Of a stretch of DNA of 58,089 bases, positions 47,001 to 53,000 are shown piece after piece; within the stretch, counting starts at the first letter, position 1, and each line of letters opens with the position of its first letter. The position numbers were made by a program. The DNA is from Candidatus Omnitrophota bacterium (GTDB taxonomy: Bacteria > Omnitrophota > Gorgyraeia > Zapsychrales > Fredricksoniimonadaceae): NCBI GenBank assembly GCA_903908245.1, contig CAIVRE010000028.1:1-58089 (forward strand), read 5' to 3'.

Positions 47001-50000
47001 GAGTTTGGCGATCTTCTGGCCCATGGTCTTCACAATACGCCACCCGCCGAACATCGTCCCGCAGGCAATGGCCGCGTAACAGCTCAAGATAACCCAGATC
47101 GGGACATGGTAATTGGTCCCCAAAAGGCCCGCTGAAAAAAGAAGCGCCGTAATGATCCCCATTGTTTTTTGAGCATCATTACCCCCGTGGCCCATACTAT
47201 AAAGCGCCGCGGAAAAAAGCTGCCCTTTCCGGGAAAGCTGATCCATCTTGAGCGGTGAGGCGTTACGCGCCAGAAAATAAACGAGCTTGCTCAGGATAAA
47301 ACCAAGAAAAAGCCCGACCAGCGGAGAAATAAATATAAAACTGACTGTTTTAATGATCCCCGATGCCACAAGCCCGGCAGGGCCCGCTTTGACCAGCGCA
47401 GCACCGATCATCCCGCCGATCAACGCGTGCGAAGAACTCGTCGGCAAACCGAGATACCAGGTAATAATATTCCAGCCGCAAGCCCCGAATAAAGCTCCAA
47501 AGATAACCGCGCTGTCAACAATATGGATATCAATGATCCCCTTGCCAATGGTATTCGCCACATGCAGCCCAAAAAAGAAAAAAGCAACGAAATTAAAGAA
47601 CGCCGCGAACAATACGGCCTGCTTGGGGCTAAGCACGCGCGTGGAAACAACTGTCGCAATGGAATTGGCCGAATCATGAAATCCGTTCAGGAAATCAAAG
47701 ACCAACGCCAGCATAACAAGAAAAACGATCTCAATGGTCATAACGAATGCTCACGCCTGTTTCAAAAGGATCGATTCAACCACATGCGCCGCGTCCTCGC
47801 AAATATCAACGACGGTCTCGGCATCCTCGAATATCTCTTTCCACTTGATAACAGAAATAGGGTCCTTCTCGGTCTCAAAAAGCGCGACCAGGGCCGTGTC
47901 GCGGATAGCATCCGAAATATTCTCCAGCCGGCTCACATCCACACAGGAGGACATCACCGCCTGATAATTCTTCATATCCTTCATACTCTTGACCGCCCCG
48001 GCCAACGCCCGCACGGCCTCTTCAATGACCAGCGAGAACTCGATGAGGTTCTTGCGAACCTCGGTGATCTTATACGTCGTTAAGCGGTTAGAAATGGTGT
48101 TCATCATATCGATAACATCGTCCAGCGCCTTGGTGAGGGAATAAATATCTTCCCGGTCAAAGGGTGTAATAAAAGTTTTATTAAGCTGGCCAATGATCTT
48201 GGCGGCGGATTCATCGGCCTTGATCTCGATCTCCTGGATCTTGCGCAGATAAAAATAATCAATAGTGCCTTTTTCAATGGCTTTCTTCATGCAATCCGCA
48301 CCTTCAATGAGGCAGTCGGCCTGCTTGTCGAATTCGCCGTAGAAATTAAACTCGTTGGGGAAAAATTTACGGAACATAACCAGCCTCCAGGGATTGTCCA
48401 TGTTAAGAAGAAGGATAGTATACAAGAAACCCGCGGAAAAAGGCAAGTTTAAAAAACCAAACCCCCTTGCCCCCGATGGCAAAAAGATCCCTTCAGTCTT
48501 TTGAAGAGGCAACGGTGAGGACAACAAGCCCGATCACGGCCAGCAACGGGCCGATGACCCCGCGAAAAACCATCTGAATGAACACCCAGTCGCGGAACGT
48601 CAGCGTGACGCCGCCAATGACCAATAAAAGGCCCAAACCGATCAAGACGAGTTTCTTCATAATCCTCCTTACTGGGTATAACACATCCTCAAATCACCGG
48701 GAGATACAAGGTCACATGAAAAATCGTCTATTCGCCGGGCGACCCATCGGGTCGCCCCTACCGCAACTCATTCTCGCGCGGGACGCATTTCCAGCGGCGA
48801 TGCAGCCAGGACCACTGCTCGGGATACTCACGGATATATTTTTCCACCACGGCTGTGAATGCCTGGGTATTCGTCAGCAGGTCCCGGCGATCATCCCCTG
48901 TTCGCACCAGATCCAACGGGCCTTCGATCTGGATCTTAAACTTACCCTGACCGGCCGGCAGCGCGAACGCCATCAACAAAGGTGCCCCGGTCTTTTGCGC
49001 GTACATCACAGGGCCAGGCGCCGTTGCCGCAGGCTTCCCAAAAAAATTCACAAATATCCGGCCCGAAGCCCCGTAGTTCTGATCCACCGGCATGAACAAC
49101 AGCTCTCCGGCCTCTATGGCCCGAATGCTTTCCGCGATACACGCACGCACCGGCGTACTTAAAATAACTTTTATCCCCATATGCCGGAATGAATCCGCGA
49201 ACTTGCCCTTAAGGAACTCGCCGCGCGGCGGCTTGGCCACCACGTTGACCCGGTATCCTTCCACGACAAAACGGAACATCATCCAGGCGAACGGCCCGAA
49301 ATGCGCAATGCCAATGACCGCGCCCTTGCCCCTGGCAAGCGCGGCGGTGATCTTGTCTTGCCCGTCAAATTCAAAAATATCCTTCGCCAGCGCGGGCCGC
49401 GCGAACGTAAAAGTAAACCCTGCCAAACCATCGGCCAGGTTCAGGAACGACACCCGCGCCAGGCGCTTCTTCTCATCAATAGGAACAGAATCCCCGAACG
49501 CGTGCGTCAGGGTATCGAGCGCGTATTTCTCGGCCTTACGGTTGAACGCGTAAAAGACCCGGACCCCGAACCTGGTGAACGGAAAGTAAATACACGCCGG
49601 TGTCACGCGCACCAGCCAAAGAAAAGAATAAAAAAAGAAGGAATTCGATCCGTTCACAAGGCAATGGTCTTTTTGATAAGGCGAACAAGAGACGCAGAAT
49701 TGATCGGTTTGGTCACATGCCCAACAGCGCCGACCGCAAGCTCTGCCGTCACATCATCATCCGAATCTTTCGCGGTCAGGAATAAAACCGGGATATTCCG
49801 GGTCACCGGCGATGACTTCAGGCGCCGGCAAACCTCCCGGCCTTTGATGGTCGGCATAATAACATCAAGCAGGATCAACCCGGGCTGCTCCGATGCGGCA
49901 AGGCTCAATCCCTCCTCGCCGTTCATCGCGGAAATGACCTCAAATCCATAAGACCCCAGGATGGGTTTAAGCATAATATGCAACGTGCGCTCATCATCGA

Positions 50001-53000
50001 TCAGAAGGATCTTGTTGGATCGTGCCACAGCCGGCTTTTTCTTGCGCAAAGCCGCTACCAACCCCGCTGCCAGGATCATCACGCATAAAAGAATGAACCA
50101 GTCACCGCACTTTGTATACCAAGTCATTTGAACCTCCGGATAAACAGATGCTACCACAAATCCTTCTTTAAGAACACGGCGGCCTTGATTATCTTCCACA
50201 CACGCCACCAGGCGTCCACGGGCATCCACCGCGCAGCTTTCTCCGGTGTTGGTCGCGCGCAAAAGCGGACGGGCGTTCTCCACCGAACGGAACAAAGCAT
50301 TGTTCAAATGCATGGCCGGCTGGCCGGAATCGCGGAACCAGGCATCATTGGTCATATTGACCAGGAACCCGGCCCCCTGGCGGACATACTCCCGCGCCAA
50401 CCCGGGAAGCGTATCTTCAAAACAGATCAGGACCCCGAACTTCCCAAGGCCGGGGACGTCAAAAAGCGAGGCTTCCGCGCCCGGTGTGAAATCATCGATC
50501 GGAACAAGGTCCTGCAAAAAAGGCAGCTGCTTGCGGAACGGGATATATTCCCCGAACAGGACCAGATGCCGCTTGGACCTGACAGCTATAATATCCCCCG
50601 AGGGCGCGATCAGGACGGCCGAATTGAAATATTTATCCGCCGATATATCCCGCGTGACCGCCCCGAACAGCAGATAAACGCGATTCTCACGGGCAAACGC
50701 CTTCACCTTCTCCAACAGGACCGGCCTGTCCCAGGTAAAATTCGGAAAAGCAGTCTCGGGCCAAATGATCAGCTTCGGCCCATGGGCAAGGGTACGGCGG
50801 CTGATCGCGATCTGACGGTCAATGATGGCTTCTTTGGAACCGGGATCCCGGGCATCCGCCAGCGCGATATTCGGCTGGATCAGTGCCGCCTTGAACAGGG
50901 CCCCATGGCTGACCGGCTCAACCGGCATTAAGACGGCGGGAAGTTGAAACATCAATAACAGGGCCGTCCCGTATAAACACAAAGGCCGAAGAGGCCCCCT
51001 GGACTTTATCTGGCCAAAGACCTCTTTAAAGAAAATATTCCAGCCCAGGACAAGGAACGAAACCCCGCTGATGCCCGTGACCGCGGCCAACGCGTACGGC
51101 GGCTGACTCTGCCCGGCCGACCCCCAGTTAAACCCGGTGAACAGCCACCCTCTCAACCACTCCAGGACAACCCACCCCGCAGGAACAAGCCCCAAGCGCC
51201 ACCAGATCTGGCAACGCGATGCCCAGTGATAAAGAACACCGAACACGCCGGTATATAAAGCAAGATACACGCACAGGAACACAAGCCCCAATGCCGTAAC
51301 ATAATGGATCCAGAAAAGAGACAGCAAAAAAAAGGCCAGGCCGGAAAGATACGCCAAGCCAAACGCCCGGCACCTGGAAGGCGCGCGGTCAAGGGCAAAA
51401 AACAACGGCACCAGCGCGACCCAGGCCAAAGGCTGAAAACCAAGCGGCGGGAACGCAGACCATAACAGAACAGAAGAAAAAAGGGCCAGGACGAAAGACA
51501 TATATTTTATACGCAAGGGCGACCCATCGGGCCGCCCCCGCGATCATGTATCCATGCACGACACAATATTATTGCCCGCAGCACTTCTTGTATTTCTTCC
51601 CGCTGCCGCAAGGGCAATTATCATTCCGGCCGACCTTTTCGGACGAGCCGGGCTGGGATGCGGCCGGACGGCGTTGAGGCGGCACAGGCATGGACGGCAT
51701 GGAAACCGCTCCGGCGATCTGGGACGCCGATGGCCCGGCACCCGAAAAAGGCGGTTCCTGCCCTTCAGCCTGAGGCATCCGTAAAGTCCCCTGAATACCC
51801 GAGAATTCCTGATGCACCAGCTCCTGACGGGAACCATAGACATTCTGCGCGCGATGATCCTCTTCCATCGGCTGCAGCTTAAAGATCATCTCCGCCACAT
51901 CGACATGAATGGTCTCATACATCGCCTGGAACATATGATACCCCTCACGCTTATACTCAACAAGCGGGTCCCTCTGCCCCAGCGCGCGAAGGCCCATACC
52001 TTCCTTCATGCGATCCATGGCATACAGGTGCTCTTTCCACTTATGGTCAATGGTATGCAGAAGGAACATCCGCTCCAGGCGGCGGATCTGCTCGACACCG
52101 AACTTGGATTCTTTCTCGGTGTAGATCTCCTTAAGCCGGGCGTAGATCATGCTCACCAGCTCTTCCGTCGCGGTCTCGGGGATGCGGTCCTTAAGGACGC
52201 TGATATCAAAATTGAACTTGTCGAGGAAATACACCACCATGCCATCGACATCCCGGTCCTTGGCCGCATGATCCTGCGGACAGAAACGGTGTACCGCATC
52301 TTCCACGGTCGAAAGGATGGATTCCTGGATAAGCTCGCGCGTATCCTCACCCTCGATGATCGAACGGCGCAGGCCGTAAATGACCTCGCGCTGCTTGTTC
52401 ATGGTGCTGTCGTATTCCAGCAGCTGCTTGCGGATCTCGAAGTTGAACCCTTCCACGCGCTTCTGGGCGATCTCGATAGCTCCCGACACCATGCCGGACT
52501 CGAGCACTTGCCCTTCCTCGAAACCGAAACGGTCCATCATCACCTTGATGCGGTCGCCGGCAAAAAGCCGCATGAGGTCATCCTCCAGCGACACATAAAA
52601 CCTCGACGAACCCGGATCGCCCTGACGGCCCGAACGGCCGCGCAGCTGGTTATCGATCCGGCGCGATTCATGGCGCTCTGTCCCCATGATATGCAAGCCG
52701 CCCAGCGCGGTCACCTGCTCACGCTCTTTCTTGACCTGCTCGCGCAACTGCTTGAGGAACTGGTCCATCAGGATCTCGTGCGACGGAGCCTCTTCCTTGT
52801 TCTTTTCAGCCTCACGGACCTTCTCGTTGGCCAAAGTGCGCGCCATAAACTCGGCGTTACCGCCCAGCATAATATCGGTACCGCGGCCGGCCATATTGGT
52901 GGCGATAGTCACCGCCTTATACCGCCCCGCCTGGGAAATGATCGTCGCTTCCAGCTCATGATACTTGGCATTAAGGACCTTGTGCTTCACGCCCTTGGCG

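Follow-up and report, generated by a model that had tools for sequence, protein, structure and literature searches.

The lnt-REC gene and its product

Bacterial lipoproteins are matured by Lgt, LspA and Lnt, a pathway usually regarded as constitutive housekeeping and exploited as an antibiotic target. Lnt N-acylates the diacylglyceryl-Cys of apolipoproteins with the sn-1 acyl chain of a phospholipid. In this study, we analyze a 58,089-nt contig (CAIVRE010000028.1 of assembly GCA_903908245.1, referred to in its whole length as the window) from a Candidatus Omnitrophota bacterium (Gorgyraeia; Zapsychrales; Fredricksoniimonadaceae), in which the apolipoprotein N-acyltransferase Lnt and a receiver (REC) domain are encoded by one continuous gene. 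This lnt-REC gene occupies 49654..51501 on the minus strand (615 amino acids and a TGA stop), as delimited by its open reading frame (ORF), Pfam, TIGR00546 and an AlphaFold2 model. The frame is open over 620 amino acids (49654..51516), and the ATG at 51501 gives the 615-residue product, a form that matches protein-database entry P0001 and whose start agrees with the N-termini of relatives. Pfam places LNT_N (PF20154) at residues 14–161 (2.3e-30), CN_hydrolase (PF00795) at 209–440 (3.3e-28) and Response_reg at 503–614 (1.9e-23), and the NCBIfam equivalog model TIGR00546 'lnt' is matched with 276.8 bits against a cut-off of 132.9 (278.7 bits in a genome-wide profile search).

From the N-terminus, the protein consists of a membrane domain with transmembrane (TM) helices 1–7 (residues 1–191, 50929..51501, minus strand; modeled helices 2–15 to 172–191, LNT_N, and the Foldseek match to 8b0p), a periplasmic nitrilase-like catalytic domain (residues ~197–460, 50122..50913, minus strand; CN_hydrolase and the alignment with Escherichia coli Lnt), an eighth TM helix that brings the chain back to the cytoplasm (residues 468–487, 50041..50100, minus strand; modeled helix 468–487, hydrophobic segment 467–485), a basic linker KKKPAVARS (residues 488–496, 50014..50040, minus strand; RKKKPAVARS with R487) and the receiver (residues 497–615, 49657..50013, minus strand; PF00072 and the modeled strand-helix pattern). 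A sequence search of the PDB aligns residues 4–489 with E. coli Lnt, such that E249, K310 and C360 of the window protein correspond to E267, K335 and C387 and the motifs WPE(T/S)A, K(R/N)HLV.FGE and IC(F/Y)E are shared. The three triad codons lie at 50755–50757, 50572–50574 and 50422–50424 (minus strand), and the Glu-Lys-Cys triad is invariant across 106 aligned homologues. The C-terminus of E. coli Lnt (..LRQRR) falls at the point where the window protein reads ..LRKKK and continues.

The receiver scores 83.2 bits with PF00072 (cut-off 30.2), and Pfam finds no glycosyltransferase match in this C-terminal domain. A reading of the codons on the minus strand places the acidic pair D502 and D503 at 49993–49998, the phospho-acceptor D546 (GAT) at 49864–49866, T576 at 49774–49776 and K598 at 49708–49710, all in place; the switch position is a histidine, H595. 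The best PDB sequence matches of the domain include the receivers of PleD, PhoP and Spo0F. The first-pass annotation of this DNA, made from the sequence alone, had described a full Lnt with its triad and last TM helix followed by a basic linker and a complete, phosphorylatable receiver, and each of these elements is borne out by the profile matches, the E. coli alignment and the structural model.

Predicted structure and topology

AlphaFold2, run on the fused protein with a 106-sequence alignment, gave a model with a mean predicted local distance difference test (pLDDT) of 94.1 and a predicted TM-score (pTM) of 0.87, the latter being only a hint that Lnt and REC are placed with some confidence relative to each other. 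The model runs through seven N-terminal TM helices, a beta-rich domain, the last helix at 468–487, the linker at 488–496 (pLDDT ~84–85) and a receiver of five strands alternating with five helices (residues 497–614). In a Foldseek comparison with the PDB, the 24 best matches were all Lnt structures (TM-score on the target 0.80–0.85), with E. coli Lnt 8b0p at the top (0.85), and by both methods the nitrilase-like domain sits between TM7 and TM8 of eight TM helices in total. E. coli Lnt likewise spans the membrane with eight helices, and its N- and C-termini are both cytoplasmic (PMC5500888). By homology, the receiver would therefore lie at the cytoplasmic side of the membrane, no more than about a dozen residues from it, since the C-terminus of Lnt is cytoplasmic and the E. 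coli enzyme stops where the linker starts, and the catalytic site of Lnt would be periplasmic.

Fused relatives

The identical 615-residue protein is recorded on 9 contigs. The first-pass annotation had proposed an architecture search in relatives, and such a search of 5.8 billion clusters recovered 14 full-length clusters (90% identity) combining LNT_N, CN_hydrolase and Response_reg, as well as one fragment; those that carry an organism name are labeled Candidatus Omnitrophota or Omnitrophica, and public annotations label the fused proteins just 'apolipoprotein N-acyltransferase'. Among the best 150 matches in 1.84 billion representative proteins, which reach down to ~239 bits, only 2 span both Lnt and REC. 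Eight fused proteins are 54–73% identical overall to that of the window, with the triad and all receiver residues invariant, and the best-conserved part, residues 440–620 (TM8, linker and REC), is 57–87% identical. Within 60 genomes of the window's GTDB family, the fusion is found in the window's genus only, in every genome that yielded the gene (G000, G015, G033 and G038); G027 of the same genus, 85% complete, gave no match. The long open frames of G077, G081, G061 and G066 were considered as further fusions and rejected, as lnt and REC are separate ORFs in each.

Two further fusions recur across data sets, P0274 in two JGI metagenomes and P0273 in JGI, ENA and NCBI assemblies, and both show the gene order prfB, secA, fused lnt-REC, acyltransferase, small gene, HAD. 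P0273 (L123 4001..6061) also carries a Gly-, Pro-, Ser- and Lys-rich insertion of ~70 residues in the nitrilase-like domain just before the segment of the catalytic cysteine.

At the junction in the window there is one continuous, clean frame, and both other frames carry stops. It had been foreseen that the fusion would fall if relatives had separate genes and an error had removed a stop codon: the genes are indeed separate in most relatives, but error does not account for the join, as a clade 54–73% identical keeps it and the other fused branches are represented by two to three assemblies each. The fusion is thus real, and a lost stop does not explain it; we take it to be a selected joining of lnt with its downstream neighbor in this lineage.

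Split relatives and the order-wide module

Other genera of the window's family encode an lnt of ~500 amino acids directly followed by a separate REC gene of 122–141 amino acids, the products of which are 50–65% identical to the fused receiver. In the nearest of these split relatives, lnt and REC lie in different frames with an overlap of 28–32 nt, or else they abut as TGAATG. A small frameshifting indel (where they overlap) or the loss of a stop (where they abut) therefore suffices for fusion. The arrangement extends well beyond the family: 81 genomes, drawn from 14 families of the order, have a receiver-containing gene next after lnt, and a PF03279 acyltransferase follows the REC gene wherever the fetched stretch reached far enough.

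The receiver occurs in three placements in the order, on its own four-TM anchor, as a soluble protein, or fused to Lnt. In most families, the receiver protein has 241–280 amino acids, of which the first ~120–145 form three or four hydrophobic helices that precede the REC domain, and the window's family (f1) and f14 have a soluble form. The anchor matches no significant Pfam family and has weak matches to membrane proteins only, and a database search with its TM part alone returned 2 proteins only. Mean pairwise identity is 25% in the anchor (a W.R motif and a few positions being kept) against 60% in REC, and we read the four-TM segment as a probable fast-evolving anchor, not as a sensor family. 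In the loci examined, every such anchor came with REC and lay beside lnt. Among 60 distinct module RECs, D546, K598 and P599 are invariant, as are V547, P550, K553, G554, C558, K562 and S580, with conservation of at least 90% for the DD pair and T576; to judge from these residues, the module REC looks phosphorylatable. Some loci carry a second, soluble single-domain receiver gene after the four-TM-anchored one (L054 2297..2683, L059 3337..3726, L028 3238..3573 and L047 199..765); in L054 and L059 it precedes the acyltransferase, and the sequence fetched for L028 and L047 stops short of any acyltransferase gene.

The module appears to be specific to the order. A search of 120 further genomes across the phylum gave no receiver orthologue beyond the order at E <= 1e-28, and 27 Lnt loci from other orders all lack a REC gene within 1.5 kb. 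The subfamily of acyltransferase found in the module is present in other orders of the class as well, and near lnt there; G183, for example, has the order secA, lnt, an unrelated gene of 181 amino acids, the acyltransferase (AHFGDFP) and a small TM protein. Because the subfamily lies near lnt in these orders without REC, the receiver gene was probably inserted into an older neighborhood of lnt and acyltransferase.

Recurrent fusion

In a maximum likelihood tree of 89 Lnt domains, all receiver-linked Lnts form one clade (support 98), within which the fused state needs six changes; well-supported branches force at least four of these. The fused proteins fall in the main clade that includes the window, in P0274 inside the split f1 clade, in P0273 beside an f10 genome, and in P0265 and P0266. 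When the fused proteins are required to form one clade, an approximately unbiased (AU) test rejects the arrangement (delta lnL 540, p ~1e-113), the group having been defined after the tree was seen. The linkers differ between the fused branches, and those of P0274 and P0265 keep the former start of REC in frame (MSK.ILLVDDD, MSDIKRVLIVDDE; ..GNMSKRILLVDDD.., ..AMSDIKRVLIVDDE..). Taken together, the tree, the AU test and the linkers indicate that fusion arose independently at least four times.

Genes next to lnt-REC

Upstream of lnt-REC lies secA (51569..54613, minus strand), called from its ORF and from the SecA Pfam domains of the upstream gene in relatives. Downstream, the TGA stop of lnt-REC overlaps the GTG start of a PF03279 (LpxL-family) acyltransferase gene (48758..49657, minus strand; Pfam 120.6 bits) by 4 bp (..TTGTGAACGG..), which agrees with the earlier description of a GTGA-coupled, LpxL-like acyltransferase gene and of secA upstream. 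In four relatives the acyltransferase gene comes after the fused gene with the same 4-bp overlap, and in two more it lies within 2–6 bp of it.

The acyltransferase departs from the LpxL/LpxM class. All 29 module orthologues aligned have the motif AHFGPFA or AHFGNFP, that of the window being AHFGPFA; the catalytic histidine is kept, and Pro or Ala takes the place of the acid in the HX4D/E motif. Scores against all NCBIfam LpxL-type models are far under their cut-offs. Two other PF03279 paralogues of the window genome keep H-x-G-N-W-E (HIGNWE and HSGNWE). Because the acid-less motif is order-wide and is found in another order of the class, while paralogues in the same genome keep H-x-G-N-W-E, the coupled acyltransferase is, on its motif, a distinct PF03279 subfamily linked to lnt.

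Next in the cluster is a gene for a 55-residue protein with two TM helices (AAGGAGGATTATG; 48493..48660, minus strand) and a strong Shine-Dalgarno sequence, a conserved downstream member of the cluster: every fused relative examined has a gene of 54–58 amino acids in this position, and a protein of another order (L118 4059..4334) ends in a similar sequence. A GC-rich hairpin (GGGGCGGCCC-GAT-GGGTCGCCC) lies between secA and lnt-REC (51517..51538), and a copy (GGGGCGACCC-GAT-GGGTCGCCC) that begins inside the TAG stop of the acyltransferase gene lies at 48737..48758. These near-identical hairpins, GGGGCG[G/A]CCC-GAT-GGGTCGCCC, bracket lnt-REC and the acyltransferase gene, and may mark a separate transcript or processing unit. 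Downstream of the module, 45454–48527 (minus strand) holds a block of PhoU_div (DUF47), PHO4 phosphate transporter, DUF502 and HAD hydrolase genes. We rejected phosphate regulation through the PhoU_div and PHO4 genes as a general explanation of the module, because they accompany it in only part of the window's family.

A second Lnt, kinases and the envelope pathway

The window genome encodes LpxC, Lgt and LspA (the last two adjacent to each other) and three PF03279 proteins, and is therefore that of a diderm with lipopolysaccharide and a full lipoprotein pathway. It also encodes a second Lnt (LntB; TIGR00546 258.7 bits), whose paralogue clade is distinct (support 100) and represented in many of the order's genomes. 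The receiver-linked Lnt is probably the ancestral copy, because it keeps the secA-lnt position of other orders, the single Lnt of which it resembles more closely than LntB does. With LntB present, the receiver-linked enzyme could be regulated without loss of all N-acylation. LntB itself has 852 amino acids (L002 1330..3888, which is ~25600–28160 of G000 contig C15; likewise L091 and L090 in the window's genus), and continues past its last TM helix with an extra hydrophobic segment, a Gln/Ala-rich probable coiled coil of ~250 residues and a C-terminal globular part; in other genera LntB has ~500 amino acids, so that both Lnt copies gained C-terminal extensions in the window's genus.

No kinase gene stands beside REC in the window, where the nearest HATPase_c genes are ~20 kb off. 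The window genome (G000) is rich in receivers for its 2.16 Mb: it has 44 Response_reg matches, many in frames of 120–140 amino acids. HATPase_c matches over the cut-off number 25, and not every one of these need be a kinase.

Interpretation

We consider it probable that lnt-REC is a Rosetta-stone fusion of parts of a conserved envelope-acylation module, in which the cytoplasmic receiver serves as a phospho-switch beside Lnt, with a target and a kinase that we infer. Where a Rosetta-stone fusion and conserved synteny coincide, the proteins concerned are usually physical partners, and here the synteny and the recurrent fusions favor a functional partnership of Lnt and REC. Lnt may be the direct partner, since fusion has been repeatedly tolerated or favored and the anchor is replaceable by TM8 of Lnt; the acyltransferase is an equally plausible target of the receiver, because its active site faces the cytoplasm.

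In every case, the receiver is placed at the inner face of the cytoplasmic membrane, or is free to reach it, by its four-TM anchor, as a soluble protein, or at the C-terminus of Lnt. In the mechanism that we propose, a kinase encoded elsewhere, or a small-molecule phosphodonor, would phosphorylate D546, and the receiver would then act as a switch on its membrane neighbors: phosphorylation might shift its contacts with Lnt (TM8 and the cytoplasmic loops), with the acyltransferase, or with both, and the shifted contacts could tune the acylation of envelope lipoproteins and lipids. The first half-reaction of E. coli Lnt leaves lyso-phosphatidylethanolamine as a by-product (PMC5500888), and it is an attractive idea that the putative task of the acyltransferase is to re-acylate the lyso-phospholipid left by Lnt. 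The most far-reaching version would have a two-component signal control the last acylation step of lipoproteins, with REC at TM8 either gating the periplasmic site or assembling Lnt with the HX4E-less acyltransferase that re-acylates the lyso-phospholipid; such a signal-controlled acylation cycle would date from the base of one Omnitrophota order, next to a second, unregulated Lnt. We hold this version to be tentative and on balance doubtful. Two-component control of lipoprotein maturation and a membrane-tethered phosphate sink had both been offered for this gene in the first-pass annotation, and both are still functions that we infer.

Several observations weigh against the proposed switch. 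The active site of Lnt is periplasmic and the receiver cytoplasmic, so that any control of Lnt would need to act across the membrane, for which we know of no precedent. The REC gene is absent from L025 and L027 (genomes G029 and G040 of the window's family), where lnt directly abuts the acyltransferase gene, and REC is therefore dispensable in those lineages. No histidine kinase-like ORF was found with phmmer in ~57 module loci when two kinases of the window were used as queries, although the absence of a linked kinase, which is usually encoded next to its receiver, does not exclude the domain from the receiver family (PF00072), because orphan receivers are common. The fusion of overlapping, co-translated genes can be nearly neutral, and the AU test, as said, was made on a group chosen with the tree in view.

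These points lend themselves to other explanations. It is rather unlikely, in our judgement, that Lnt is a membrane anchor only and REC a tethered phosphate sink, a relay node or a regulator of some other target (for example, of the acyltransferase alone). In favor of this reading, the anchor is interchangeable (a poorly conserved four-TM segment, none at all, or TM8 of Lnt), the receiver lies on the opposite side of the membrane from the active site, and receivers outnumber HATPase_c matches in the genome (44 against 25). Some families (L054, L059, L028 and L047) also have the second soluble REC gene in the module, and the switch position of the receiver is a histidine, as it presumably is in the relay protein Spo0F, which is among the PDB sequence matches. 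If REC were a mere sink, however, nothing would account for its position between lnt and the acyltransferase gene over 14 families, nor for at least four fusions to Lnt specifically, and the four-TM anchor is itself confined to receivers beside lnt in the loci examined.

That the joining changed nothing, a small indel having connected two overlapping, coupled genes so that the fused REC acts as the separate one did, we regard as improbable. The overlap of 28–32 nt or abutment in the nearest split relatives makes such a step mutationally easy, and split forms are in the majority, but the main fused clade keeps the fusion down to 54% identity, fusion recurs in at least four branches, and a soluble regulator with distant targets would be expected to suffer when tied 9 residues from a membrane helix; the conserved module would also be left unexplained. 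A sequencing or assembly artefact, by which a lost stop or a frameshift joined two genes, has in its favor that most relatives have separate genes. It is most improbable in view of the 9 contigs with an identical protein, the 14 full-length fused clusters, the fusion in all four same-genus genomes that yielded the gene, and the clean frame of the junction with stops in both others.

The probable partnership of receiver and Lnt, if it proves regulatory, would mean that bacteria could tune lipoprotein triacylation, and perhaps a linked lipid acylation, by phospho-signaling, and would offer an example of a receiver with an integral membrane enzyme as its output on the far side of the membrane. 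The soluble, anchored and fused natural forms make a ready-made experimental system, in a lineage that is uncultured.

Comparison with known systems

The Lnt part of the window protein is alike to Lnt of E. coli and Pseudomonas aeruginosa (5N6H, 5N6M, 8B0P) in its eight TM helices, periplasmic nitrilase-like domain and triad. E. coli Lnt stops a few residues past TM8, whereas the window protein adds a receiver of 119 residues, and the window genome also holds a second Lnt paralogue. To our knowledge, Lnt has no protein-level regulator, and a literature search found no protein-level regulation of Lnt. Nor did it find a description of a receiver on Lnt; the one paper in which 'apolipoprotein N-acyltransferase' and 'receiver domain' both occur screens for drug targets, to judge from title and abstract, and does not deal with a fusion.

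Receivers fused to enzymes are common. Compared with the receivers of PleD, CheB, CheY, Spo0F and DivK, the domain described here has the canonical (beta-alpha)5 form with DD, D, T and K, and its split form is a single-domain response regulator. It differs from them in standing C-terminal to an integral membrane acyltransferase whose active site is across the membrane, and in having no linked kinase. The coupled acyltransferase, set beside LpxL/LpxM and PatA, matches PF03279 over its full length and keeps the catalytic histidine, and differs by the replacement of the HX4D/E acid with Pro or Ala.

The nearest precedent, in logic only, is Ppm1 of Mycobacterium tuberculosis (Rv2051c), in which an Lnt domain is fused to a cytoplasmic polyprenol-phosphate-mannose (PPM) synthase; in M. 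smegmatis and Corynebacterium the two have genes of their own, ppm2 and ppm1, which lie side by side. The products of the split genes interact, and the proposed role of Lnt is to anchor the PPM synthase at the membrane or to activate it there (PMC3460810). Both cases are Rosetta-stone pairs, Lnts with a cytoplasmic C-terminal partner that is encoded by a separate neighboring gene in relatives. The partner in M. tuberculosis is a GT2 (glycosyltransferase family 2) enzyme and not a signaling domain, and lineage and pathway differ, while in the Omnitrophota the partner is a receiver and a PF03279 acyltransferase follows.

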